In this document: positions 4,131-26,239 of the stretch, piece by piece
Numbering within the stretch: the stretch's first letter is position 1
Layout: each line of letters opens with the position of its first letter
DNA from: Candidatus Micrarchaeota archaeon
GTDB taxonomy: Archaea > Micrarchaeota > Micrarchaeia > Micrarchaeales > CABMGC01
NCBI GenBank assembly: GCA_021850625.1
Contig: JAJZLJ010000027.1
Location: forward strand, 23,389 to 87,388
DNA: 64,000 nucleotides
Direction of reading: 5' to 3'
Translations under genes and position numbers: made by a program
The notes under the pieces: model-generated
Seen by the model: the letters and a program-made list of their open reading frames with translations, nothing else
What the model was told of the DNA's origin: nothing
Databases searched by the model: none

Positions 4131-4397
4131 CTAAATAAGTAGTGAAAGTACAATAAGAAGAAATGACATTGAAAATAGGTATATGCCGATTTTCTTATCG
4201 AAAATAATTAATCTTTTAGTTTTTTTGAAGAATGTGTAAAGAATTATTACGTTAAATGAACAAAACAGTAATGAGAGGATTATTGGTTCGCTTAAAAATA
4301 TAAAGATAGAAAGTTCAAAGAAAAAAAGACTTATAAAAATAATAGAATTTAATATCGAACTGTTTTTTTTGTATGGTATTGAAAACATGTTGTTCAT
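4131..4397 (-). CDS. Small integral membrane protein (about 88 aa from the internal Met)
   Basis: It has three hydrophobic segments. The start overlaps the upstream stop by 4 nt when Met12 of the tracked ORF is used. Confidence 0.4.
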   Translation of the reverse strand: MNNMFSIPYKKNSSILNSIIFISLFFFELSIFIFLSEPIILSLLFCSFNVIILYTFFKKTKRLIIFDKKIGIYLFSMSFLLIVLSLLI

Positions 4398-4585
4398 AAA
4401 ATCAACAATATTAAAGCCGAAAGCACGCATAACAAAATAAAACCAAAAAGCTTTTCAATAAAAAAGAGATGTATGTGTTTATTTTTAGATAATAAAACTG
4501 AAAACGATGTGAAAATTCCTAAAATTCCTGAAAAAACACCTATTGCAATACTTATCAAAAGAAAAAAATTGTATTCTAACAACAA
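4394..4585 (-). CDS. Small integral membrane protein (63 aa, two hydrophobic helices)
   Basis: The sequence is hydrophobic and lies within the tightly packed operon. Confidence 0.4.
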   Translation of the reverse strand: MLLEYNFFLLISIAIGVFSGILGIFTSFSVLLSKNKHIHLFFIEKLFGFILLCVLSALILLIL

Positions 4586-8707: not shown

Positions 8708-9109
8708 TTACACAGTATTTGCAGTAACATTTGTCAAAACATTTGCAGTGGCATTGGTAAGCAAATGAGTAGATGCTACGGCAAGTCCAGTAGATGCTAC
8801 TGAGAGCACCGCCACTATTATGGCACCAACAATTATGTCTATAGAAGCACTGTGAAAAGTAGCTCGTTTATAGGTAGGAAATAATTGACCCACAGCATAA
8901 AATATTCCTGCAAGTATAAACAATACTGCACTTAGTATAGGACCTATTTGTGTAAGTATACCCTGTACAGAGTTTAGAGTAGATACAATATCAAACGAAA
9001 TCGAATACGCTCCTACTATCTTAATTGTTAGACCTAGCAGGAAAAACAAAAAAGGTATTTTTATATATTTTACAATATCTTTTCCACAATTACTATATCT
9101 TTTATTCAT
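8708..9109 (-). CDS. VirB2/TrbC-type pilin-like small membrane protein (first gene of the operon)
   Basis: The 133-aa ORF starts with a signal-like segment (IPFLFFLLGLTIKIVGAYS). Two hydrophobic helices follow, separated by a short basic loop (PTYKRATFHS). Confidence 0.45.
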   Translation of the reverse strand: MNKRYSNCGKDIVKYIKIPFLFFLLGLTIKIVGAYSISFDIVSTLNSVQGILTQIGPILSAVLFILAGIFYAVGQLFPTYKRATFHSASIDIIVGAIIVAVLSVASTGLAVASTHLLTNATANVLTNVTANTV

Positions 9110-10680: not shown

Positions 10681-12375
10681 TTAATATGATAGTTCTTTTG
10701 AACGTTCTTTTATTTCTTTTTCTATATTATTTATAAATTCAGATAGCTCAACATTGAATTTTTGCTTGCCAGAACGTGAGCGCACAGTAATTTTAGAGGC
10801 TTCTTCCTCTTTTTTACCTAGAACTATAGTATATGGAAGTTTCATAGTTATTGCTTCTCTTACTTTGTACTCAAGCGTTTTATCAGAGATATCAAGTTCG
10901 GTTCTTATTCCATGAAGTTTGAGTTCTTTGTATATTTTATCTGCGTAGTCATTGGTTTGTTGAGATATAGATAGTACCCTGACTTGTATTGGAGAAAGCC
11001 ATGTAGGAAATTTGCCCTGATAATGTTCAACCATAACTGCAGTAAAACGCTCTATCGAACCGAGTATAGCTCGATGTATTATTATTGGAACCTGAGTGTG
11101 ACCATCTTCTGCAGTATACTCAAGATTAAATCGTAATGGAAGTTGATAATCTATTTGTATTGTTGCACATTGCCAACTTCTGCCCATAGAATCGATAACA
11201 TCGAAATCTATTTTAGGACCATAAAATGCACCATCCTTTTCCTTAATTCCATACGACATCGAATTAGCTTCCAAGGCACTTTTTAATGCATTTGTAGCCT
11301 TCTCCCATAACTTCTCGTCCCCCATATGTTCATCTGGCATTGTAGAAAGCTTAGCATTAAATTGCATGCCAAAAACATTATAGGTTTCTTTCACCATCTT
11401 TAACAACGTGATCATCTCATCTTTAAGTTGATCTTCTCTTACAAAGATATGCCCATCGTCTTGAGTAAGTTCTTGTACACGTAGAAGTCCGCTTACGACG
11501 CCAGACAATTCACGCCTATATATCTTATCGAATGTTGCTGTTCTAAATGGAAAATCTCTATAACTCCATTTTCTTGATTTGTAAATTAATATGGTTGATG
11601 GACAATTCATAGGCTTAAGACCATGATCACCCGATTCAGTTTCAAACATAAACATATTTTCTTTATAATGTTCTAGATGTCCGCTCACCTGCCATAATGC
11701 AATATTTGATACTACAGGTGTGCTTGTCTCTAGATAATCGTACCTAAACTCTTCATCACGCATTAGTTTTATTAGTTCACGATATATAGTATGACCATGT
11801 GGATGCCAATAGACCATTGCAGGGGATACTTCCTGAAAACTGTATAAATCTAGTCTTTCACCTATTGTTCTATGATCTGTTTCGGGAAGACCTGCCCATG
11901 AACTTTTTCTTACTATTGCCGTATTTTTGCTTATTGGTTTTACTTTGGTATAGGTTTTTGTCGTTGCATCTAATCCATAACTTCTAGACTGCTCTGCGAG
12001 AGGATGAGCTTTTATATCTAGAATAAGTTTTTTGTTCCAGCCAAATGGAGCTTTTACAACAGTTAATTCCTTTGGAACATTTTTATACATATATTCGAGA
12101 ATTTGCATTGCTTCTTTTGGTGAAGCAAGATTTCCACTTAAATGTGCAAAGGGATATATAACTAGAGAATTTCTATCCAATTTCTTCATGAACTCATAAG
12201 TATCAAACATGGCTTTTTCTGCCATTTCGTTTGTATCTCCAACTTCTACCGAAACTAAAATAACAAGCGTATCTTTAATTATAGTTCTTTCTTTTTTTAC
12301 ATCATCGTAAAGACTTGCTTCTGGACGTATAGGTTCAAATGTTATGCTATCTACGTCCATTTGAAGTATTTTCAT
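10681..12375 (-). CDS. thrS: Threonyl-tRNA synthetase, archaeal type
   Basis: The 564-aa ORF has an archaeal N-terminal editing-like domain. Class II core motifs are present (HRTIGERLDLYSF, MNCP, FRTATFDKIYRRE, RAILGSIERF), along with an anticodon-binding C-terminus. Confidence 0.9.
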   Translation of the reverse strand: MKILQMDVDSITFEPIRPEASLYDDVKKERTIIKDTLVILVSVEVGDTNEMAEKAMFDTYEFMKKLDRNSLVIYPFAHLSGNLASPKEAMQILEYMYKNVPKELTVVKAPFGWNKKLILDIKAHPLAEQSRSYGLDATTKTYTKVKPISKNTAIVRKSSWAGLPETDHRTIGERLDLYSFQEVSPAMVYWHPHGHTIYRELIKLMRDEEFRYDYLETSTPVVSNIALWQVSGHLEHYKENMFMFETESGDHGLKPMNCPSTILIYKSRKWSYRDFPFRTATFDKIYRRELSGVVSGLLRVQELTQDDGHIFVREDQLKDEMITLLKMVKETYNVFGMQFNAKLSTMPDEHMGDEKLWEKATNALKSALEANSMSYGIKEKDGAFYGPKIDFDVIDSMGRSWQCATIQIDYQLPLRFNLEYTAEDGHTQVPIIIHRAILGSIERFTAVMVEHYQGKFPTWLSPIQVRVLSISQQTNDYADKIYKELKLHGIRTELDISDKTLEYKVREAITMKLPYTIVLGKKEEEASKITVRSRSGKQKFNVELSEFINNIEKEIKERSKELSY

Positions 12376-13202: not shown

Positions 13203-13703
13203 TTAAATTTTTTTATAAGAAGATGTTCCACCTACTTCGTATCCAAGTTTATTATAAAAGTCAAGTGCTTTTTTATTTGATGTAAAGAACCCGACCATAA
13301 CAATATTACAACCATTTTCTTTTAACCATTTCTCCGCCTTTTCCATTAGTTTGCTACCGATATTACTGCCCCTATGATGAGATTCTACATATATTTCAGT
13401 TATAGTACCAAATTTCTTCAGTGGTTCTTTTAATCCTAATAAATCTACTTTAGATGGTGCCTCTGGTAGTTCAGCAATTACATAGCCTACAACTTTATCT
13501 TTCACTTCTGCTACATAGAATATCTTGTTTTTCTTTGAAACACCTTCGACTATCTCTTTTAAATATTCGACACCATATCCTTTCTTCTTATCATATTCAT
13601 CTAAGGTATCAAAAGCCATCATTGTATCTTTCATACCCTCAATTAATTGGATTGCCACCTTTTTATCGCTTTTTCTATATTCTCGTACCTCAGGATTTAT
13701 CAT
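13203..13703 (-). CDS. GNAT-family N-acetyltransferase
   Basis: The acetyl-CoA binding motif HHRGSNIGSKLMEKAEKWLKENG is present, and the size (166 aa) is typical. Confidence 0.75.
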   Translation of the reverse strand: MINPEVREYRKSDKKVAIQLIEGMKDTMMAFDTLDEYDKKKGYGVEYLKEIVEGVSKKNKIFYVAEVKDKVVGYVIAELPEAPSKVDLLGLKEPLKKFGTITEIYVESHHRGSNIGSKLMEKAEKWLKENGCNIVMVGFFTSNKKALDFYNKLGYEVGGTSSYKKI

Positions 13704-13842: not shown

Positions 13843-13889
13843 CTGCTAATAAATTCCTTTTTGTGCTAATAAATGAGATTAATTAGCAG
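13843..13889. promoter_or_regulatory. Three TGCTAAT boxes (candidate operator)
   Basis: An 11-nt direct repeat TGCTAATAAAT occurs at 13844-13854 and 13864-13874, 20 nt apart. An inverted copy ATTAGCAG lies at 13882-13889 and pairs with CTGCTAAT at 13843-13850. Confidence 0.3.
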
Positions 13890-13918: not shown

Positions 13919-13977
13919 ACATTTATATATCTTAATGTTATAACATTAAATTACATTATAATACATTTATATAAATG
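13919..13977. promoter_or_regulatory. Nested palindromes and a TATA-like tract at the RHH gene start
   Basis: ACATTTATATA (13919-13929) is inverted against TATATAAATGT near 13965-13976. A perfect 14-nt palindrome AATGTTATAACATT lies at 13934-13947. The palindrome CATTTATATAAATG (13964-13977) contains the ATG. Confidence 0.3.
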
Positions 13978-14217
13978 TGGATGAATAAAATGACGAATAA
14001 AAATATTGATAAAAAGGCAAGAAAGTATACGACAATAACAATACCACAGCCTCTATTTAATAAAATAAAAAAAAGCATAGAAAACACCGGCTTTTCTTCA
14101 GTTTCAGATTGGGTTACATTTGTCTTAAGAGAAACAATGATAGATATGGAAAAAAAGGATAGTAAGAATAAAAGCGCAGTTATGGAAAAACTTGAGGCGC
14201 TAGGTTATACTGGTTGA
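13975..14217 (+). CDS. Ribbon-helix-helix (CopG/Arc-like) DNA-binding protein with a CysD-type C-terminal tail
   Basis: KYTTITIPQPLFNKIKKSIENTGFSSVSDWVTFVLRE fits the RHH fold pattern. The C-terminus is KSAVMEKLEALGYTG. Confidence 0.6.
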   Translation: MWMNKMTNKNIDKKARKYTTITIPQPLFNKIKKSIENTGFSSVSDWVTFVLRETMIDMEKKDSKNKSAVMEKLEALGYTG

Positions 14218-14221
14218 TTTT

Positions 14222-14506
14222 ATGAATGATGACTTTAAAGAAGCTTCAGAGCTGCTTTGGAAAAAACAAAGCAAAGAAAATTGGGAAAATTTTAGTTCTG
14301 CGTTAAAATCTAGCACTGCCAAGTATTACAAAATAGTTTTTGAGAAAGGCAAAATAAACAAAGAACAGGATTTAAGGAAATCTTATGCTGAGATATATGA
14401 TGTAAAGGAAAAACTGTTGCTAAAGATACCTATTTTTATGAATGAAGGTAAAAAGGTCGTTGGAGCGACAATTTACCTAATAGGATTGCAGATACTTAAT
14501 AAGTGA
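14222..14506 (+). CDS. Hypothetical protein (94 aa)
   Basis: It is packed 4-5 nt from both neighbours in the operon. No motif was recognised. Confidence 0.4.
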   Translation: MNDDFKEASELLWKKQSKENWENFSSALKSSTAKYYKIVFEKGKINKEQDLRKSYAEIYDVKEKLLLKIPIFMNEGKKVVGATIYLIGLQILNK

Positions 14507-14510
14507 TTTT

Positions 14511-15299
14511 ATGATAATACAAGATATAAAAGAACTTGAGGAAAAAAGCATTTACATAATAAGAGAGGCAACAAACAACTTCAAAAATGTTGCTGCGCTT
14601 TGGAGCATGGGAAAGGACAGCACATCAATGCTTATGCTTGCTAGGAAGGCATTTCTTGGAAAAGTCCCATTTCCAGTTATACATATTGATAATGGAATAG
14701 ATTTCCCTGAAACATATAAATTCAGAGATGAACTTGCAAAGAAATGGAACCTTGATTTGATTGTAGCTAAAAGTGAAATAAAGCCAGAGATGTCCGGATT
14801 TGCATGTTGCGGTGCGAATAAGACAGTGGCATTAAAAAAACTTATGAAAGAAAAAGGATTTGATGCTTTGATTGTTTCTATAAGAAGAGATGAACACGGA
14901 ATAAGAGCGAAAGAGAGATATGTTAGCCCAAGAAATAAAGAATTTAAATGGAATTATAAAAACCAGCCCGCCGAGGTTTGGGGAAATTATCTTTCTGAGC
15001 TTGGAAAAGGAGGCCACGTAAGAGTACACCCGCTTCTTGACTGGAATGAAATAGATATATGGAACTATACAAAACAAGAAAAAATACCTATGAACCCCCT
15101 TTACTTTTCTAGAAACGGCTTCAGATATAGAAGTCTTGGATGTACGCACTGCACCGTTCCAATAAAATCAAATGCAAAAAACATCGATGATATAATTAAA
15201 GAGCTTGAAACTACAGAAGTAGAAGAGAGAGCTGGACGAGAACAGGATAAGGAAAAATCGTACGTTATGGAAAAGCTAAGAGCCTTAGGTTATATGTAG
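14511..15299 (+). CDS. cysD: PAPS-reductase-fold PP-loop enzyme, sulfate adenylyltransferase subunit 2 (CysD)-like
   Basis: The PP-loop is ALWSMGKDST. The CysD-like C-terminus is EERAGREQDKEKSYVMEKLRALGYM. A CysN-like GTPase gene lies immediately downstream. Confidence 0.65.
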   Translation: MIIQDIKELEEKSIYIIREATNNFKNVAALWSMGKDSTSMLMLARKAFLGKVPFPVIHIDNGIDFPETYKFRDELAKKWNLDLIVAKSEIKPEMSGFACCGANKTVALKKLMKEKGFDALIVSIRRDEHGIRAKERYVSPRNKEFKWNYKNQPAEVWGNYLSELGKGGHVRVHPLLDWNEIDIWNYTKQEKIPMNPLYFSRNGFRYRSLGCTHCTVPIKSNAKNIDDIIKELETTEVEERAGREQDKEKSYVMEKLRALGYM

Positions 15300-15306
15300 T
15301 GATTTA

Positions 15307-16530
15307 ATGATGATAAGAAGAGTCACATTACTAGGCCATAAAGACCATGGTAAATCTACACTCATTGGAAACCTTGCAATAATAACAGGTTCGGTGACTG
15401 AAGCTAGAATAAATGATGCTAAGAAAACAAGCAAAAAGCTAGGTTTACAATTTGAACCTGGATTTATACTAGATAGTTTTTATGAAGAACGAGAAGGAGG
15501 ACTTACTATAGACACAACACGTGCACAGATAAAATACAAGGATAGTGCATTTGAATTTATAGATGTTCCAGGGCATGAAGAGCTTACTAAAAATATGATA
15601 AGCGGAGCTTCGTATGCTGATGTTGCATTACTCATGGTATCAACTAAAAAAGATGAGGGTATAAAACCTCAGACAAAAAGGCACATATTCATAGCTAAGA
15701 TGCTTGGAATAACTAAATTAGTAGTTGCCATAAATAAAATGGATGCTGCTAAATATAGTGAAGAGATTTTTGAAGAGATTAAACATGATCTCTCCGAATA
15801 TCTCTCAAAAATAGGTTTTGATAGAAATAATGTTGCGTTTGTACCTATATCAGCGTATACAGGAGAAGGACTTATAAAAAACTCTAAAAACATGAGTTGG
15901 TATAAAGGAGCTACGTTAATAGAATTACTTAAAAAAATGTCTGAAAAGAAAGAGATATCTCGAATAGAACTTGCTGTTCTTTTGCAAGGTGAGATAGGAA
16001 GGGATAAAAAAATAGTCGCAGGAAAGGTAGTTTCTGGTGTTTTGAACAATCATTCACAGATAATGCTACTCCCTGGAAAAGAGCTATTTACAATAAATGA
16101 CATAGTAGTACGTGGAGGTAGTACAAATAATGCTGTATACGGAGAAAATGTTGCAATTGTACTGGACAAGGAACCAAAAAATGAGGTAAGAGGCAAGGTA
16201 CTTGTAGAAAAAGACATGAAGAAAAAAGCAGTTAGAGAGATAGTTGCTATGATTTTTTTTATTAGGAAGATCTCAGGCCATGTTTCCTTATTGATAAATG
16301 GCTCTAAGATTGATTGTATGAACATAGAGATTATAAAAACCATAGATATAGTTACGGGTAAAGAATCAGAATTAAAGATCATTAAGCCTCTAGGAGCAAT
16401 TCAAGCAAGAATAAGACTCAATAAAGAGGTATTTGTAGAAGATTTTCAAGAAATGCCAGAATTAGGTAGATTTGTGATATATGATAATGATAAATTTTCT
16501 GGTATAGGCGTAGTAGAGGTTAAAAAATGA
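15307..16530 (+). CDS. cysN: EF-1alpha/CysN-family translational-type GTPase (sulfate adenylyltransferase subunit 1-like)
   Basis: G1 is GHKDHGKST, G2 region is REGGLTID, G3 is DVPGHEE, G4 is NKMD and G5 is SAYTG. Beta-barrel domains follow. Confidence 0.6.
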   Translation: MMIRRVTLLGHKDHGKSTLIGNLAIITGSVTEARINDAKKTSKKLGLQFEPGFILDSFYEEREGGLTIDTTRAQIKYKDSAFEFIDVPGHEELTKNMISGASYADVALLMVSTKKDEGIKPQTKRHIFIAKMLGITKLVVAINKMDAAKYSEEIFEEIKHDLSEYLSKIGFDRNNVAFVPISAYTGEGLIKNSKNMSWYKGATLIELLKKMSEKKEISRIELAVLLQGEIGRDKKIVAGKVVSGVLNNHSQIMLLPGKELFTINDIVVRGGSTNNAVYGENVAIVLDKEPKNEVRGKVLVEKDMKKKAVREIVAMIFFIRKISGHVSLLINGSKIDCMNIEIIKTIDIVTGKESELKIIKPLGAIQARIRLNKEVFVEDFQEMPELGRFVIYDNDKFSGIGVVEVKK

Positions 16531-17651
16531 AGCATCTTTTAATAATGGAGTCTGGATCCTTTAAGACCTTTGGAGGGGCTGCTAATGCTACATATGACAT
16601 ATATATGCATTTAAAAGAATCTAAAGAGTATAAAGTAGATCTCTTTGCTGATTTTATTAAGATAGATCCTAATGCAAAATCAATAAAAATAGAGGATCTT
16701 TCTAAACGCAAATATGATTTAGTTATGCTTAATTCCATAAGAGATGTACCTTTTGTATTAAAGCATTTGATAAATAAAAAGAGCAAAAATGCCAAGTACA
16801 TTTATGTTGATAGAGGGAATGTGTTGCTTAATTTTAGAAATGCAGGAATTAAAAAAGCACTGCCTAAAATGATTGCAAGAGAATATTTAATGAATAAAAT
16901 GAAGAAATGGCTTGATTGCTATGTTGCTCTTTCTGCTGCACAGTATAGATTTGCTAAGAAATTCTTTTCTGATAAAACGCAGCTCACTTATTTGCCCATA
17001 ACACCTAATGAAAGTTTTAAGAGGGTGCTAGTTACAACAAAAGAACCTAATGCAATTTATGTAGGAAGACTTGATGAACGACAAAAAAAGGTCGGGTTGC
17101 TCATAAAAGGCGTTGAACGAGTAGTTACCTTGCATCAAGAACTAAGATCCAAACATCTTTTGACAATAGTTGGAAGCGGACCTGATTCTGAAAAATATAA
17201 AAAATACGTAGAGCAGATGCATCTTTACAAAAATATAAAATTTCATGGTTATGTTAAAGAAAAAGAGTTGGTTAATATTTATAATACATCAGGATTTTTT
17301 GTATCGTACTCTGAATGGGAGGGAATGAGCAGAACCTTTCTTGAGGCTATGGCTTGCGGTCTTCCTCTTCTCATCAATGAAAAAAACAATACATTAATAG
17401 GATATAAGCCACTGACATGGCTTGTTACCGAGTATTATAATGGTTTGATTTATAAATATGGAGACATAGATAATTTTGCCAAAAAATTTTATGAAATCTA
17501 CAAGGGAGAACGATTGAGAAAAGATCTTTCAAGAAATGCCTACGAGTTTTCAAAACAATTTAATAATAGGGAAAATCTTGATACATACAAGACAATAATA
17601 GACAGGCTTATCCTAGATAAATTAGTATCAAGCATAGTTTTTAAGCAATAA
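16527..17651 (+). CDS. GT4-family (GT-B) glycosyltransferase
   Basis: It carries the EX7E-type motif YSEWEGMSRTFLEAMACGLPLL. Its start overlaps the cysN-like stop (ATGA). Confidence 0.75.
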   Translation: MKHLLIMESGSFKTFGGAANATYDIYMHLKESKEYKVDLFADFIKIDPNAKSIKIEDLSKRKYDLVMLNSIRDVPFVLKHLINKKSKNAKYIYVDRGNVLLNFRNAGIKKALPKMIAREYLMNKMKKWLDCYVALSAAQYRFAKKFFSDKTQLTYLPITPNESFKRVLVTTKEPNAIYVGRLDERQKKVGLLIKGVERVVTLHQELRSKHLLTIVGSGPDSEKYKKYVEQMHLYKNIKFHGYVKEKELVNIYNTSGFFVSYSEWEGMSRTFLEAMACGLPLLINEKNNTLIGYKPLTWLVTEYYNGLIYKYGDIDNFAKKFYEIYKGERLRKDLSRNAYEFSKQFNNRENLDTYKTIIDRLILDKLVSSIVFKQ

Positions 17652-18597: not shown

Positions 18598-20082
18598 TTA
18601 TATTGAAAAATACTTTGTAATTATTTTGTATATATCGTATATTTTAACATCTTTAAAAGCTGGTTTGCCATTTGGCACATATACACCAAAGATGCCCATT
18701 TGAGTATGATCTCCTCGTTTTGGTGGTTCTGGTTCCATAAAAAAATTAATATTTGAAAAATTAAAAATATCTATAGAATAACCTGGTTCAGCATCAACAA
18801 AAAGATCAGGAGCTATGAATTGGGTTTTGGTCTTATAATAATCCTTTGCATCGTATATATTTCTTATTACTAGTTTTCCTTCGCTATTTTTTATAGTAAG
18901 AAGTTTTTTTGATAATAAGGTTTTAAGCCCTTTTATCTCAGTATCCTTAACTATTCCATGTTCAAAACGCTTGTCGTTTATAAATATGGTAGCGACATTT
19001 ATGTTTGATATTCCGGCAAACGCGACTGTTTTTGACATGTCATAATCAAAAAGATGAAGTCTGGTATAACTGCCTGAAGATGCAGAAGAAAATACCGCTC
19101 CTATAGATTTGTGTACTGCTTTTTTGGCAGAATGTGGAAGTTTATCGTAAACCTTTCTTAGACCTGTTTTCATAGCTTTTTCACGTATAGTATATGACAT
19201 AGAAGCTGATTTTTTTTCAGTGTTATTATTCATATTCTTTAGTATTGTATTTTTTATAGATGCGAAGCCGTTCTTTACAAGCCAGCCGTTTATTAGAAAT
19301 TTTTGATTTATTGGCTGTGCACCATGGTCTGATACTACCATAACCATTGCATTTTCCTTTTCTGCAGCTTGGAGGCAGTAGGTTATAAAATTATCTATTG
19401 CACGATATATTGGAAGAGTATAATCATCTGCATTTTTCTTATTAAGAACAAAATGCTGCAGTCGATCCGTTTCGGTAAAACATACATATACAAAAGAATA
19501 TTTTTCCTTTTTAATCATTGATTGCGCTATTCTTGAGCGTGACTCTATACTTTTTACAAAGTGCACTACTGCTTCTTGTTCTGTCATTTTTCCAGCTTTC
19601 ATGTCTTTTTCTATATCTGGCTCTCCATAAAAATTTTCTTTTTTCATTAATTCTTCCAAATAAAGATTGTTTGTCTTTGCTTTTAATGGAAATCCTGTTA
19701 TCATATCTACATTTTTATAGTTAGGCAGGGTAGTGTTCATCGCAGGAGTAATTATAAGGCATTTTCCTGCTTTTTCTGCTATCTTCTTCCAAAAAGGCTC
19801 TGCTTTTTCTGGATTATAAAATGCCAATTCTGGAGTATAATCCTTTTTCATCTCAAAAAAATCAGGTACTCCATGTTCTGATGGATTTAAACCAGTGTAT
19901 ATGCTTGGCCATGCGGCACCAGTCATTGGAGGCATTGTGGATGCCATCTCAGAAAGCATTCCTTTTTCTATCAGCTTTTTAAAGCCTTTAAGGTCATGTT
20001 CATTAGATAGACGAGTTATTAACCATAAAGGCGCAGAATCTATACCTATAAGATAAAGTTTCTTCTTACTCTCAATTAACAA
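18598..20082 (-). CDS. Alkaline-phosphatase-superfamily enzyme (nucleotide pyrophosphatase/phosphodiesterase-like)
   Basis: Motifs are IGIDSAPLW, PPMTGAAWPSIYTGLNPSEHGV and VVSDHG. The ORF is 494 aa with a TTG start. Confidence 0.6.
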   Translation of the reverse strand: MLIESKKKLYLIGIDSAPLWLITRLSNEHDLKGFKKLIEKGMLSEMASTMPPMTGAAWPSIYTGLNPSEHGVPDFFEMKKDYTPELAFYNPEKAEPFWKKIAEKAGKCLIITPAMNTTLPNYKNVDMITGFPLKAKTNNLYLEELMKKENFYGEPDIEKDMKAGKMTEQEAVVHFVKSIESRSRIAQSMIKKEKYSFVYVCFTETDRLQHFVLNKKNADDYTLPIYRAIDNFITYCLQAAEKENAMVMVVSDHGAQPINQKFLINGWLVKNGFASIKNTILKNMNNNTEKKSASMSYTIREKAMKTGLRKVYDKLPHSAKKAVHKSIGAVFSSASSGSYTRLHLFDYDMSKTVAFAGISNINVATIFINDKRFEHGIVKDTEIKGLKTLLSKKLLTIKNSEGKLVIRNIYDAKDYYKTKTQFIAPDLFVDAEPGYSIDIFNFSNINFFMEPEPPKRGDHTQMGIFGVYVPNGKPAFKDVKIYDIYKIITKYFSI

Positions 20083-21599: not shown

Positions 21600-24482
21600 C
21601 TAGGAGGTTGCTATTGGTAATGGAGGGGTTGGAATTGCTGAAGAGTTTTGTTGCCAGGTTATAGTACATTGATTTTGTACATGAACAAAATATCCGCTTC
21701 CTTCGTTTGGTGTTTTTGGATTATAATAATTTTGAGTTGATGAGTTGTAAGAATATAATACAGGGGCACCAGCGTTAGTATAGCATGGACTTAATAACGT
21801 TGTAAATGACTCATTTGTAAGTATAGGTACGCCTATAAGATTCCATCCGGTTTGAAGTGTTTGTTTGAAAGTGCTGTTTTGTACAAATGTTGATGGGAAT
21901 GTAATAACATTTTGACAATTATACCCAGCATATACCCATGCACCGTAATTATCGTTGTAGAGCAAACTGAGAATAGATGTATTTAAAGTCGTATTATCAG
22001 AGTATGCATCAATATATGATTGTGTATAAGGATTATAAAAATATAATGCTTTTACAACGTTGTTACATGTGCCTGAGGAAGTCGCAAGATTTGCATCTTG
22101 AGGAAATGAAATTAGATTCCATCCTTTCGATATATTTAAAGTAATAGTTTTCAATGTTATTGGTGGGGTGGTTGTTGGTAATGTAATTGGTACTGTGGTT
22201 GGTCCTGTGGTTGGTGCCTGAATGATTAATGCAGTCTCTATGATGTTGCCGTTCATTGTTATTATAGAATTACTATTGCTTCCGGTGTAGCTACCTACGC
22301 CAGTACCATTCCAATATATGTAAGAGGTGCCAGCTATATTTGAATATGCAGATATACTTACATTTGTCCCAGCTGGATATAAATGTACTCCAGGAGATGG
22401 TGCTGTAGAGACATATGGAGATTTTGAAATTATGTCTAGGGCGTACTCATTTACAGCTGAGCTTAAAGCAGTCAGAGAAAACTGAGCCCATTTTTGATTT
22501 GCATAACCTGGGAATGTATTGTATAAAGTAAGATATAATTTATTGTTACCTTGTACAATAATTGCATTGCTGCCTGGAGCCACAGTTGTAATATTGGTAA
22601 GAACCCCATTGTAATAGAAACTAAAAGTTGCATCAGATATACTCTGTGCAGTTGGTATACTCAAATCATCTAGTACGACCTTCCATGGCCCAGATGTTGT
22701 GCTGTTCCCAGTATAGAGATCTATACCATTTACAATGTCATATCCTGCCCACTTCTGGTATGAATATAAACCTGGGAAGGTCTGAAGTACATTAATTGAA
22801 ATAGCATAACCATCATACTCGAACGAGGCTACGCCATTCACGTTTATTGTAGTTATGTTAACTAAATTATTATTATAATACACAGCAAATACTGCTGGAG
22901 ATGTGCCTGTTGAGTTAAACTGCCCGACATTTTGCAACACCACAGTCCATGGACCTGAAAAGACCTTCTGTCCAATAAATGAAATCTTTTTACTTGGTGT
23001 ACTATATGCGGCAATTGAGAACCTTGCCCACTTCTGGTATGAATACTCTCCAGGGAATGTCTGATACAGGTATAGGTATATGCCACTGGTCGCATTTCCA
23101 AACGAAGCTGCAGTGCCCGGAGTTACAATTGTATTGCCCACAAGATTGCCTTTATAGTATGCCGAGAATGTTGCAGTAGAAACGCCGCTTGCAGTAGGCG
23201 CACCCAAACTAACCAATACCACAGTCCATGGTCCAGAGGTTATGTTATGATTGACGTATATAATTGTTCCATTAGTAGTAGAGTTTGTGGTTGTTGGATA
23301 TATTGTTGAAGAGGTTGTTGTTGATGAAGTTGTTGAAGAGGTTGTTGTTGATGAAGTTGTTGAAGAGGTTGTTGTTGGTTGAATTACATCCAATGATGCA
23401 GCGCCAGATATTGCTGTGTCGCCACTGCTGTCGGTAACCTGAATTTCGAAGTGATATACACCTGGATTTGCATCTATTGCAATTCCATAATCTGGAGAGG
23501 TACCTTTTTGACCTGCTATTGGAGTATAAGTAGAACTGCCTGGTGCTTCTTCGAAAAGTTGATATGTATAACCACTGCTTCCGCCTGATGCGCCACTGTC
23601 TACAAGTTGCGCAGTTTGTCCTAAATTCATTGGATTGGTTGTTTGGAAGATTGGGGTTGGTATTGTAAGAGGAGATGGAGTTGAGATAGTTACAAGACTT
23701 GTTGGAGATGTAGAATATGTGCCAGAACCTTCACTTGAAATTACTATACAATAATATGTATTTGAGATTGGAGTTACAGTAGGGAATGTAAAACCGCCTG
23801 CAGAATCTTTAACGTTTACCGTTGCTGATATAAGTTCTGTTGCTGTTGAAGGAGTACATGTAGATGAAGATGATGAGTATAAACCTAACGCATATGGGAA
23901 GTTACTTCCGGACCACGTTGTTGAAAATGCAACGCTCTGACCTTTTGTTATTGTTGGATTTAAAGGAGAGATAGTTGGAGATATAGGAAGTGGATAAATA
24001 GATACCGAAGCGACATTTGAGTCTATTGATGCACCGCTACTATCTGTAGCCTGAAGTTGGAAGTAGTAGGTTCCAGGAGTAACTGATGAATTTATTTGAA
24101 ATATATATGATATTTCTATTACACCGTAAAGATTTGATATTTTTAAACCTGATACTTGAGTTGCGGTGCTCTGTGTAGAAAATCTTTTCCATAATTTATA
24201 AGAATATGGAGCAGTGCCGCCTGATGCTCCACCAACTGTAATAATAGTCATGTTTGTATTGCCGTTTGTGACTTGAGTAAAACCTGAAGAAGAACTATAT
24301 AAAGTACTTATTGACAATGGACTAGTTGATAATTGAAATGGAGCCGTAGAGTATGAAGATTGGTTTGATTGTATGTATAAAGGTGCCCCTTGATATAAAG
24401 GTGCAGGATAATATCCAAATGAAAATGAGAATGCCAAAAACCCAACAAATAATGCTATTAACGAGATTAATTTCTTATCCAT
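21600..24482 (-). CDS. 960-aa secreted surface protein/adhesin with Ig-like modules, a Thr/Ser linker and three tandem GPWTVVL...QKWA domains
   Basis: It has a Sec-type signal (LISLIALFVGFLAFSFSF). GG..PYSY/GYTY modules, a TTTSS linker, three repeats of about 90 aa, and C-terminal GWNLIS/GWNLIG motifs follow. Confidence 0.6.
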   Translation of the reverse strand: MDKKLISLIALFVGFLAFSFSFGYYPAPLYQGAPLYIQSNQSSYSTAPFQLSTSPLSISTLYSSSSGFTQVTNGNTNMTIITVGGASGGTAPYSYKLWKRFSTQSTATQVSGLKISNLYGVIEISYIFQINSSVTPGTYYFQLQATDSSGASIDSNVASVSIYPLPISPTISPLNPTITKGQSVAFSTTWSGSNFPYALGLYSSSSSTCTPSTATELISATVNVKDSAGGFTFPTVTPISNTYYCIVISSEGSGTYSTSPTSLVTISTPSPLTIPTPIFQTTNPMNLGQTAQLVDSGASGGSSGYTYQLFEEAPGSSTYTPIAGQKGTSPDYGIAIDANPGVYHFEIQVTDSSGDTAISGAASLDVIQPTTTSSTTSSTTTSSTTSSTTTSSTIYPTTTNSTTNGTIIYVNHNITSGPWTVVLVSLGAPTASGVSTATFSAYYKGNLVGNTIVTPGTAASFGNATSGIYLYLYQTFPGEYSYQKWARFSIAAYSTPSKKISFIGQKVFSGPWTVVLQNVGQFNSTGTSPAVFAVYYNNNLVNITTINVNGVASFEYDGYAISINVLQTFPGLYSYQKWAGYDIVNGIDLYTGNSTTSGPWKVVLDDLSIPTAQSISDATFSFYYNGVLTNITTVAPGSNAIIVQGNNKLYLTLYNTFPGYANQKWAQFSLTALSSAVNEYALDIISKSPYVSTAPSPGVHLYPAGTNVSISAYSNIAGTSYIYWNGTGVGSYTGSNSNSIITMNGNIIETALIIQAPTTGPTTVPITLPTTTPPITLKTITLNISKGWNLISFPQDANLATSSGTCNNVVKALYFYNPYTQSYIDAYSDNTTLNTSILSLLYNDNYGAWVYAGYNCQNVITFPSTFVQNSTFKQTLQTGWNLIGVPILTNESFTTLLSPCYTNAGAPVLYSYNSSTQNYYNPKTPNEGSGYFVHVQNQCTITWQQNSSAIPTPPLPIATS
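23305..23379. repeat. 27-nt tandem repeat (about 2.8 copies) encoding the TTTSSTTSS linker
   Basis: The unit gttgaagaggttgttgttgatgaagtt is repeated head to tail. Confidence 0.8.
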
Positions 24483-24755: not shown

Positions 24756-25412
24756 TTAAAAATCTTTTTTCTTTTCAAAGCTTGCAGCTGCTATGTTCTT
24801 AGGTATTGCAACCTGCTTTACCTCTCTGTCAGGGAACTTTGTTCCTGGCTGAACTATACGCACCGTTACGCCTATAGCTCCATATTTAGGATAAGAAGCT
24901 ATTTGTGCAACGTCTACTAGCTTTGCTGAATTTCCAGATTTTGGAAGATAGCCAAGCCTTACCTTTAACTTCTTGGCTCTAGCCCCCTTAGCAGCTAATT
25001 TGCCTTTTGCTATTATCTCTGCTCCAAGCGCTCCATTTTGCATAATCTCTTTTATTGCTGTATGAATAAGTCTTCTAGGATTTATTCCTCTTTCAAGAGA
25101 GTTAGCTATTGATTTGGCAACAAGTCTTGGTTCAAGTTTTGGATTTCCAACCTCAGCAACACTTATCTGAGGATTTTCAAGCTTAAATCTTTTCTTCATC
25201 GTCTCGGTTAATGAATCTATTGTTTCTCCTCCGCGTCCAATTACTCTGCCTGGATTCATAACATAAGGAGTGATTCGTGTTATTATGGGTGTTTTCTGAA
25301 TCTCAACTCTTGAGAAGCCTGCTTTCGAAAGCCGCTCTTCCATATACTTTGAGATTCTCCTTTTTATTATAAGATCCGATATAAACTTTCTTTCTACTAC
25401 CACAAAATTCAC
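24756..25412 (-). CDS. rps3: 30S ribosomal protein S3 (uS3)
   Basis: The KH domain (GRVIGRGGETIDSLTE) and operon position support the call. Confidence 0.9.
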   Translation of the reverse strand: MNFVVVERKFISDLIIKRRISKYMEERLSKAGFSRVEIQKTPIITRITPYVMNPGRVIGRGGETIDSLTETMKKRFKLENPQISVAEVGNPKLEPRLVAKSIANSLERGINPRRLIHTAIKEIMQNGALGAEIIAKGKLAAKGARAKKLKVRLGYLPKSGNSAKLVDVAQIASYPKYGAIGVTVRIVQPGTKFPDREVKQVAIPKNIAAASFEKKKDF

Positions 25413-26239
25413 TCATTTACTGCTTTGTTTTTTTGAAGATCAACTGTATTATCTATATTTGATGAAACGCCTTGAGAGGTACTTGATTTGGCCTTTTCAT
25501 TTGCGTTGCTTTCTTTATTTGTTATTGTTTTTTTATTCTCCTGTGTTTTTGTGCCTTCATTCTTCGATGCCTTTTCAGACTTTGGAGAGTTTAATGCTTT
25601 GGTTTCTGATTTTATTGCAGTAGATTCTTTTTCCTTTTTATTATCTTTCTGCTGTTTTTTCTTTACAGGAGCAATACGTTCAATAGACTCGAATTTCTTA
25701 GATATGTTTGATTTTTTACCTATAAAATACTTCATGTTTTTTGTAATGCCTTTCTCATCAGAACTTCCAAGTATTATCTCTATTTTTGAGTACTCTATAT
25801 CACTGTGCATTAGCGCTGATCTGCCATACATTCCTCTGCCCCATGAAATTCCTCCTTTTGAAGGCTGTCTTCTGACTATATTTGTCTTATTTGCACATGC
25901 ATGTAAAACTATTAACTCCTCACCTGGAAGAGCTTTGTTGTTTGCATTTGCTATAGCATTTAAGAGAACAATTCTTACCTCCTTTGCTGCTTTTATTGGA
26001 TACTTTCCTTTTCTTCCGTGAAGTTCATGTCTTGCACCCATATGCTTATTGTGCCTTTTATATGGTATTGGCATCTCCATACGTGCTAATTTTTCAGTTA
26101 ATGCAACTGCGCTGCTCGCTTTTAAATATCTTACAGCATCGCATACCGCACCAAGATCCTTATAACTTACATTTAGCTCTTCTTTGTAAGCATATGCAAG
26201 ACCTTCATTATTTATTTTTACATTGAATGAATATTTCAT
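25409..26239 (-). CDS. rpl22: 50S ribosomal protein L22 (uL22) with a Lys/Ser/Glu-rich C-terminal extension of about 120 aa
   Basis: The uL22 core covers residues 1 to about 155 (VRYLK..., GRKGKYPIKAAKEV..., RRQPSKGG...). A low-complexity tail follows. Confidence 0.85.
   Translation of the reverse strand: MKYSFNVKINNEGLAYAYKEELNVSYKDLGAVCDAVRYLKASSAVALTEKLARMEMPIPYKRHNKHMGARHELHGRKGKYPIKAAKEVRIVLLNAIANANNKALPGEELIVLHACANKTNIVRRQPSKGGISWGRGMYGRSALMHSDIEYSKIEIILGSSDEKGITKNMKYFIGKKSNISKKFESIERIAPVKKKQQKDNKKEKESTAIKSETKALNSPKSEKASKNEGTKTQENKKTITNKESNANEKAKSSTSQGVSSNIDNTVDLQKNKAVNE

Follow-up and report, generated by a model that had tools for sequence, protein, structure and literature searches.

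The window analysed here is a 64,000 nucleotide (nt) stretch from a Candidatus Micrarchaeota archaeon, positions 23,389 to 87,388 of contig JAJZLJ010000027.1. At 13975-16530 of this window, to which the positions below refer unless a related locus is named, there are four open reading frames (ORFs) on the same strand, separated by gaps of 4, 4, and 7 nt. As was already laid out in a preliminary description made from the sequence alone, these encode a ribbon-helix-helix (RHH) regulator of 80 amino acids (aa), a 94-aa ORF, a CysD-like enzyme, and a translational-type GTPase. The regulator and the CysD-like enzyme end in nearly the same short peptide, called the tail in what follows. This regulator, its tail, and the sulfate-activation genes with which they are found are the subject of this report. 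The features of the region are:

13922 to 13929, forward strand: TATA-box-like sequence TTTATATA, an invariant block in the alignment of close relatives and a putative promoter element
13934 to 13967, forward strand: putative operator, made up of a 14-nt palindrome and ACATT repeats, the presumed binding site of the RHH regulator
13975 to 14217, forward strand: RHH regulator, 80 aa as called, assigned from its homologues and a weak likeness to the RHH domain of NikR
14179 to 14214, forward strand: C-terminal tail of the RHH regulator, VMEKLEALGYTG, from direct translation and family conservation
14222 to 14506, forward strand: 94-aa ORF, a Micrarchaeota-specific accessory gene of the cassette, from its presence in related loci
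14511 to 15299, forward strand: short-form CysD-like PP-loop ATP sulfurylase subunit, 262 aa, from PF01507, PRK05253, and the structure 1zun_A
15264 to 15296, forward strand: C-terminal tail of the CysD-like protein, VMEKLRALGYM, from direct translation, aligning with the end of Pseudomonas syringae CysD
15307 to 16530, forward strand: EF-1alpha/CysN-like translational-type GTPase, 407 aa, the presumed CysN equivalent, from family models and context

From the V to the Y of the two tails, 9 of 10 residues are identical. The 30 nt that encode them have 23 identical positions, with a synonymous difference in 4 of the 9 identical codons. The many synonymous positions of the preliminary description are thus real as synonymous differences, but amount to four codons. 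When all six frames of the window were searched, the pattern [KR]L.[AS]LGY.{0,2} followed by a stop codon was present in no ORF beyond those of the RHH regulator and the CysD-like protein.

A scan with the CysD-like protein, taking one genome per species, returned 495 relatives; the counts for related loci given here are for the best 80. Nearly all of these carry a label of Micrarchaeota or of unclassified archaea, two bins are labelled as bacterial, and Ca. Micrarchaeum sp. A_DKE is among them with a complete genome. The cassette of RHH regulator, small ORF, CysD-like gene, and EF1A/CysN-like GTPase gene is common to about 75 Micrarchaeota loci. An RHH orthologue is directly upstream in 76 of the 80, the remaining four being cut by contig ends, and its orientation is divergent in eight or nine of the related loci. 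The GTPase gene adjoins the CysD-like gene in 75 of the 80, and the others stop at contig edges. The small ORF of the 94-aa type is present in approximately 75; it is absent from L036, L061, L076, and L066, which is Ca. Micrarchaeum A_DKE, and the contig of L041 ends there.

Both tails are kept in these loci. The RHH tail, [VIL]x[EK]KL[KRE]ALGY plus 1-2 residues, is present in 73 of the 76 orthologues, and the CysD-like tail, Y[VI]M[EQ][KR]LR[AS]LGYM, in 75 of the 80 loci. None of the remaining approximately 5000 ORFs of at least 40 aa in the 80 loci has such a C-terminus. This bears out the earlier suggestion that the likeness is maintained at the protein level and is not a recent DNA duplication, and the match between the tails is, judging from these alignments, ancient.

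The window regulator matches no Pfam RHH model at threshold and has a weak NCBIfam NikR match (E 0.0026). Its orthologues are 70-78 aa, against the 80 aa called, and translation may in fact begin at 13981 or 13990, each an ATG. The homologues (n=96) are all from Micrarchaeota or 'Marsarchaeota' bins and share the core RKYTTITIP.PLF..I...I..TGFSSVSDYVTYVLRET. A profile of the family matches NikR structures weakly (E 0.012) over the RHH domain, which makes the NikR RHH its closest solved relative. When this profile was searched against 1.8 billion representative proteins (E <= 1e-3, clusters at 50% identity), the family was found to comprise 1196 clusters, the ending of which is nearly always ...EEKVKERLRALGYLD. 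Among the 149 best representatives, 126 have the ending ...RL[RK]xLGY followed by at most a few residues, with ...F(T/S)KEDEEKVKERLRALGYLD as the typical form, and the exceptions mostly look truncated or frameshifted. Family-wide, L(-5), L(-2), G(-1), and Y(0) of the tail are invariant or nearly so. In 60 diverse members the tail keeps an invariant L, G, and Y, conservation in the DNA-binding core is lower, and the linker that precedes the tail varies in length and composition. Its members occur in Micrarchaeota and in Thermofilum, of the Thermoproteota; for Palaeococcus, of the Thermococcales, membership is judged from a locus tag next to that of sat in a published genome. On this comparison, the window protein is a member of the Micrarchaeota branch of a large, uncharacterised archaeal family of NikR-like RHH regulators. 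No description of such a family came up in a literature search on RHH or CopG regulators of sulfurylase operons in archaea.

Some relatives are longer, and in these the RHH_1 and RHH_10 matches lie in an extra N-terminal RHH. Four proteins of 207-214 aa (P0237, P0256, P0299, and P0358) and the regulator at L094 4286-4930 have such a second N-terminal RHH-like domain (DUF7557 or RHH_10). These members of approximately 210 aa then have a middle region without matches, followed by the usual RHH and tail.

The genes beside the distant regulators place the family in sulfate activation. A metagenome scan for family loci returned 80, in which the next gene is readable in 71 and lost at the contig end in nine. 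Directly downstream of the regulator is the ATP sulfurylase Sat in 49 of the 71, an alkaline-phosphatase (AP)-superfamily enzyme in 11, a CysD-like protein in 4, a kinase of adenosine 5'-phosphosulfate (APS) in 2, and another gene in 5. The usual operon order is RHH regulator, Sat, DHH-family phosphatase, AP-superfamily enzyme or sulfotransferase, APS kinase, and sodium:sulfate symporter or TauE. One short contig has the regulator followed by a Sat-type ATP sulfurylase. On a Thermofilum contig the APS kinase gene is divergent from that of the regulator, which is followed by Sat and then a PF01663 enzyme. Two further contigs have the regulator beside an ABC transporter, with Sat or a CysD-like protein and GTPase nearby. 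In Palaeococcus pacificus, the CopG regulator PAP_09880 has a locus tag adjacent to that of sat, PAP_09885, and both are up-regulated with sulfur, a pair of results between which the paper draws no link (PMC6981617).

The Thermofilum locus L091 has two more small ORFs with the tail, at 4386-4574 (reverse strand) and 8783-8992 (forward strand), of 62 and 69 aa. These end in ...RLRELGYG and ...RLKALSYI, and with the regulator make three small tail-bearing proteins. In two other loci, which are unrelated, an IS605 OrfB / Cas12f-like TnpB gene is directly upstream of the RHH gene (L003 4402-5613 and L090 3-512).

The regulator tail ...KERLRALGYLD is identical in Sat-type and CysD/CysN-type operons, and in two loci (L107 and L110) the regulator precedes a bacterial-type CysD with a polar tail. 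Sat, which works without a GTPase partner, is not related to CysD. The preliminary description suggested that both tails dock on one partner, most plausibly the GTPase; this cannot be a general arrangement, since the next gene is Sat in most of the metagenomic loci and the regulator tail there is the same. Neither the GTPase nor the sulfurylase is therefore the general receptor of the regulator tail, and the GTPase in the window is probably not what the regulator tail binds. The constancy of the tail across both types of operon argues that it is intrinsic to the regulator.

It is not, however, confined to regulators and CysD. Of the complete APS kinases in the metagenomic loci, 9 of 37 have a matching tail. 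Two of 195 aa (L119 6176-6763 and L120 520-1107) have the full linker-plus-tail module, ...YTFEDEE.IK.RL.SLGYL, and in these two loci the gene order is RHH regulator, APS kinase, Sat. Many other APS kinases end in a related helix (..ELGYI/L, ..ELEYID). The tail is absent from the 43 Sat, 30 AP-superfamily, and 3 GTPase proteins of the metagenomic loci, and virtually no other ORF in them carries it. By these occurrences, the tail is pathway-specific.

Upstream of the window regulator, the conserved block is at 13922-13967. It consists of TTTATATA and then a perfect 14-nt palindrome, AATGTTATAACATT, at 13934-13947. ACATT repeats start at 13943, 13953, and 13963, exactly 10 nt apart, and only a few bases separate the last of them from the start codon. 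The palindrome, with 3 or fewer mismatches, is upstream of the RHH gene in approximately 60 of the 68 loci with a co-directional, forward-strand RHH gene, with a perfect copy in over half of these; in most Micrarchaeota loci, a TTTATATA-type box comes immediately before it. The self-identity of the Micrarchaeota upstream regions at lag 10 is 0.44, with lags 5 and 8 about as high. In the distant loci (n=73 distinct), a TATA box is followed, at the same position, by three to five tandem TAATTAAAT(G/A) units, and the self-identity is 0.457 at lag 10 versus 0.30-0.36 at other lags. Such an arrangement would be expected if several RHH dimers occupied the same face of the DNA across the transcription start, and from it we infer autoregulation. 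A different operator had been proposed earlier, the TGCTAATAAAT repeats. These are real, at 13844-13888, but are not conserved, being absent from most relatives, even L010 and L011, in which the CysD-like protein is 97% identical.

The CysD-like protein is a clear member of its family, matching PF01507 (E 8.5e-40), NCBIfam PRK05253 (308.9 bits versus a cutoff of 195), and 1zun_A (E 6e-54), and 1zun_A is also the best Foldseek match of its model. It falls below the stricter CysD models TIGR02039 (231.9 versus 396.6 bits) and PRK12563 (228.9 versus 413). It is short and diverged, with 262 aa versus about 300, and is without an insert of approximately 33 residues. By family assignment it would be the subunit for GTP-coupled APS synthesis.

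Its tail is a feature of the CysD family, as the preliminary description had supposed. The P. syringae CysD, 1zun_A, ends in ...GSMEEKKRQGYF (SMEEKKRQGYF), which aligns with the window tail. The bacterial-type CysD proteins of L107 and L110 end alike in ...AMEDRKKEGYF, and short archaeal ones in ...AMQRLRALGYM (L157) or ...IMRRLRDFGYF. The common ending is M-E/Q-x-x-K/R-x-x-G-Y-F/M, to which the window protein conforms, with the Micrarchaeota at the amphipathic end of the range. An AlphaFold2 model of the CysD-like monomer has a helix at residues 245-258, with a predicted local distance difference test (pLDDT) score of only approximately 56-60, and is uninformative on packing. The chain 1zun_A has 204 modelled residues of 325, a number that fits the core aligning with window residues 5-201, from which we infer that the C-terminal third of CysD, including the tail, is unmodelled in 1ZUN. 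The only solved CysD-CysN complex is for this reason evidence neither way, and nothing on the CysD C-terminus was found in papers citing the 1ZUN structure.

The explanation favoured here, with moderate confidence, is that the protein is an autoregulator of sulfate-activation operons with a tail that acts within the regulator, and that the CysD tail is a separate, ancestral feature. The genes of these regulators head archaeal operons for sulfate activation and sulfation, which comprise Sat or CysD/CysN, often with an APS kinase, a DHH-type phosphatase, a sulfotransferase or AP-superfamily enzyme, and a sulfate transporter. Several RHH dimers would bind the repeats spaced by 10 nt next to the TATA box, which in the window are AATGTTATAACATT and ACATT at 13934-13967, and this binding would autoregulate the operon. 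The hallmark of the family is a variable charged linker, then a short amphipathic helix ending in L-x-x-L-G-Y. This tail probably gives dimer-dimer contacts, possibly effector-dependent, for cooperative binding, by analogy with the tetramerisation helix of Mnt, and would be no handle for the GTPase. The CysD tail would presumably act within the CysD-GTPase enzyme, and that of short-form archaeal CysD has taken on the amphipathic L-R-A-L-G-Y form seen in the regulator. The greater conservation of the tail residues than of the RHH core, maintained across a variable linker, is in favour of this.

Several considerations weigh against it. Self-association of the tail is argued by analogy. A helix of 10-12 residues is short for oligomerisation, and near-invariance is more what one would expect of a motif that docks on a conserved partner. 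The regulator, CysD, and some APS kinases have the ending in common, essentially no other ORF has it, and a shared structural solution is hard to credit as the sole reason for this. The F.EDEE.IK.RL.SLGYL module of the L119 and L120 APS kinases suggests a portable unit. In the Schellman motif, a common helix C-cap, the helix is followed by a Gly, with a hydrophobic residue packing back. The L-x-x-L-G-Y ending fits this pattern, and part of the tail likeness may be such a shared structural solution. With the tail restricted to one pathway, there is still room for real cross-talk.

Such cross-talk is the substance of the alternative that survives best, which is possible but doubtful. The tail would be a portable docking peptide of the regulator, CysD, and some APS kinases, all addressed to one common site other than the GTPase, either on the body of the RHH protein or on some hub protein whose gene is not part of the operon. 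Transcription would then respond directly to how abundant or how assembled the enzymes are, in the way that toxins act on RHH antitoxins. The distribution of the motif fits this well, with its presence on the regulator, the CysD-like protein, and 9 of 37 APS kinases, against none of 43 Sat and none of 30 AP-superfamily proteins and essentially no other ORF. The presence of the whole linker-plus-tail module on the L119 and L120 APS kinases, the three small tail-bearing ORFs of the Thermofilum sulfation locus, and a tail conservation above that of the DNA-binding core are also in keeping with it. However, only the RHH regulator and a sulfurylase of either type are common to all loci. The related end helix of most APS kinases (..ELGYI, ..ELEYID) may be the native last helix of the fold. 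The tails of bacterial CysD are polar (MEDRKKEGYF), and well-studied bacteria are not known to have such a regulator as a partner. The residues after the Tyr also differ, always exactly one in CysD and one to six in the RHH proteins, which argues for different binding modes. It is a tentative suggestion that the regulator, CysD, and some APS kinases compete through L-x-x-L-G-Y for a single receptor, so that assembly of the complex is read at the promoter, in a conditional-cooperativity circuit like those of toxin-antitoxin systems, re-used for metabolism.

Two other products of these operons have been considered as partners of the tail. The 94-aa ORF was not found in any of the non-Micrarchaeota loci fetched, has no Pfam or NCBIfam match, and gives an AlphaFold2 model with a pLDDT of 57, which is not usable. 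As the receptor of the tail it is ruled out, since the tails persist where the ORF is missing (L036, L061, L066, L076, and all of the non-Micrarchaeota loci). The AP-superfamily enzyme (PF01663 or PF00884) is ruled out as a universal partner, its gene being adjacent in just 40 of the 59 Micrarchaeota loci that extend far enough, with an otherwise variable downstream context. It is also found within many Sat/APS-kinase operons, where it frequently has the APS kinase on one side and Sat or the DHH phosphatase on the other (L091 7395-8744, L169 8334-9731, and many of L095-L174). An APS-using transferase, a transferase using 3'-phosphoadenosine 5'-phosphosulfate (PAPS), and a nucleotide pyrophosphatase are candidates for its function.

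The GTPase itself has GTP_EFTU at residues 3-203, a domain-2-like region, and an eEF1A C-terminal domain, which is the three-domain EF-Tu/EF-1alpha architecture. It is below both curated cutoffs, that of EF-1alpha (PRK12317, 279.8 versus 502 bits) and that of CysN (TIGR02034, 228.1 versus 336.1 bits). Over its full length it can be aligned with EF-1alpha structures from archaea (216 bits), with a lower score for CysN 1zun_B (159 bits). By context and not by score, it is a diverged member of an archaeal CysN-like lineage. A less diverged relative in L157, beside a short-form CysD, passes TIGR02034 (361.5 versus 336.1 bits) with an equally good EF-1alpha score, which fits the proposed derivation of bacterial CysN from archaeal EF-1alpha (PMC4342817).

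That the RHH and CysD tails compete for this GTPase, coupling transcription to its free form, is very improbable. The Micrarchaeota cassette always includes the GTPase, and CysN touches CysD where EF-Tu touches aminoacyl-tRNA (PMC5770160). There is also a precedent in the C-terminal helix of the ribosomal stalk protein aP1, ...L..LSALFG, which binds aEF1A (PMC4267659). In a mapping of residues from Pyrococcus horikoshii aEF1A, the domain-1 residues of the aP1 site are kept in the window GTPase as K124, F128, and K131. The helix that holds these residues is presumably conserved across EF1A and CysN proteins generally. In domain 3, however, K324, A360, and I384, which are essential for aP1, are V313, K344, and Q366 here, and with domain 1 kept and domain 3 not, this mapping lends no support to a stalk-like docking site on the window GTPase. 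Further, most family members with the same tail head Sat-type operons that lack the GTPase, the tail sequence being constant whatever the sulfurylase type, and two tail-bearing CysD-like genes (L124 and L145) have no GTPase gene in the fetched locus. The part of CysD that would make the contact is in the C-terminal third that is apparently unmodelled in 1ZUN.

It has also been considered, as a very improbable case, that the tail is an effector element, in which the face of E(-7), R/K(-4), and G-Y contacts the phosphosulfate and adenine of APS, PAPS, or sulfate and serves as a lid in the enzyme and a sensor in the regulator. APS is the product of CysD, the substrate of APS kinase, and a plausible signal for the regulator, and the tails of bacterial CysD, archaeal CysD, and the RHH proteins all have E(-7), G(-1), and Y(0), together with a basic residue at -4 and a hydrophobic one at +1. 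Sat makes APS too, yet none of its 43 proteins has the tail; a helix of 12 residues on a flexible linker is unlikely to be a ligand site alone, and no structural or biochemical support was found. Membrane targeting by a MinD-like amphipathic helix, bringing regulator and enzymes near sulfate import or the sulfation of glycans or lipids, is the least credible proposal. The tail is short, basic, amphipathic, and C-terminal, in operons that often hold transporter and polysaccharide-synthesis genes, but bacterial CysD tails are polar, and a strictly invariant G-Y is unexpected for a lipid-binding helix.

The intergenic spot between the CysD-like and GTPase genes is occupied in some relatives by a free-standing homing-endonuclease ORF, at 7313-8152 in L001 and L002 and at 7338-8162 in L005. 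In L015, L019, L026, L051, and L056 the GTPase start is 700-900 nt past the CysD-like gene, and likewise an endonuclease ORF is present. Two endonuclease families, NUMOD3/Vsr-like or LAGLIDADG, use this one spot, and the window has no insert there. A second EF1A/CysN-like GTPase gene is found on the opposite strand 3-4 kb downstream of the cassette in L068 (11090-12301, reverse strand), L080 (11534-12751, reverse strand), and L082 (6703-7914, reverse strand), and could be a genuine aEF1A or another paralogue.

Beyond the GTPase gene of the window are two further features of relevance to the pathway:

16527 to 17651, forward strand: GT1-family glycosyltransferase, the start of which overlaps the GTPase stop codon by 4 nt
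18598 to 20082, reverse strand: AP-superfamily enzyme, PF01663, from Pfam, a recurrent neighbour of sulfate-activation genes

The glycosyltransferase gene is probably the last gene of the operon, and a relative of it was found in 29 of the 80 related loci. Past it, on the opposite strand, are an epimerase gene and the PF01663 gene. The other window genes checked are housekeeping genes, for example those for ribosomal proteins and threonyl-tRNA synthetase. A 564-aa ORF at 10681-12375 (reverse strand) matches in length and position the threonyl-tRNA synthetase of the relatives, which is divergently upstream of the cassette (L001, L003, and L005), and in the window a GNAT acetyltransferase gene at 13203-13703 separates this ORF from the cassette. 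At 21600-24482 (reverse strand), adjoining the ribosomal-protein cluster, is a 960-aa ORF with sub-threshold Pfam matches only (DUF4625 and Y_Y_Y). The ribosomal protein L22 ORF at 25409-26239 (reverse strand) is 276 aa, of which the L22 domain is residues 18-124 only; it may have a long C-terminal extension or be a wrong ORF call.

As the preliminary description had remarked, no APS kinase or APS/PAPS reductase is visible in the window. A tblastn search with archaeal queries for APS kinase, Sat, sulfotransferase, DHH phosphatase, and sulfate transporter found no match in the 64-kb window or in 89 Micrarchaeota loci. The Micrarchaeota module is minimal, consisting of the regulator, the small ORF, the CysD-like protein, and the GTPase, often with a PF01663 or PF00884 enzyme and glycosyltransferases. 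The pathway may stop at APS here; alternatively, genes located elsewhere or the host may provide the missing steps. It is plausible from this gene content that the module makes APS for the modification of surface glycans or lipids.

The regulation of sulfate activation and sulfation in archaea is almost unknown, and the family provides one candidate regulator. It is easy to recognise, with a defined type of operator, 10-nt tandem repeats beside a TATA box, and an invariant 10-residue tail. It is also clear that Micrarchaeota, which belong to the DPANN, keep a minimal and strongly conserved pair of CysD and EF1A-like GTPase. This pair bears on the use of APS in reduced cells and on the origin of CysN from archaeal EF-1alpha (PMC4342817). 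The likeness of the tails is more general than the window shows, and its use in signalling between regulator and enzyme is possible. Were the mimicry functional, it would be a new example of feedback from enzyme to promoter through a short peptide.

The system can be compared with several that are known. It is like the bacterial CysD-CysN pair (1ZUN) in its PP-loop core, with 44% identity over the modelled part, in the adjacent gene for a translational-type GTPase, and in the M-E...G-Y-F/M ending. It differs in the shorter CysD without the insert, in a GTPase that scores higher as EF-1alpha than as CysN, and in having no APS kinase in the window or related loci. The M..L.ALGY of the tail loosely resembles the amphipathic C-terminal helix of aP1, L..LSALFG, in its complex with aEF1A (PDB 3WY9, PMC4267659), but the domain-3 contacts are not conserved in the window GTPase and the aromatic and Gly positions are swapped.

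For mimicry, the best analogue is the complex of the CysE tail with CysK, together with its mimics, the CdiA-CT toxin and CymR-CysK, although the proteins and the peptide are unrelated. The C-terminal peptide of CysE docks on CysK, other proteins copy this peptide, and a complex of enzyme and regulator controls transcription. The RHH antitoxins ParD, RelB, CcdA, and FitA are alike in their N-terminal RHH, their flexible C-terminal tail, and their position as the first gene of the operon. Their tails bind the product of the downstream gene and tune the repression of an autoregulated operon. Unlike in type II antitoxin systems, the genes downstream of the present family are those of CysD-like proteins, Sat, AP-superfamily enzymes, and APS kinases rather than a toxin.

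NikR, Mnt, Arc, CopG, and omega have a small N-terminal RHH, as the family probably does, and share with it a gene at the head of the operon that is presumably controlled, and tandem and inverted repeats that overlap the promoter. Mnt tetramerises via a C-terminal helix, and omega and CopG bind their repeats cooperatively. Unlike NikR, the family is without a metal-binding domain; its addition to the RHH is instead a peptide of approximately 12 residues on a variable charged linker, and this peptide is more conserved than the DNA-binding domain.

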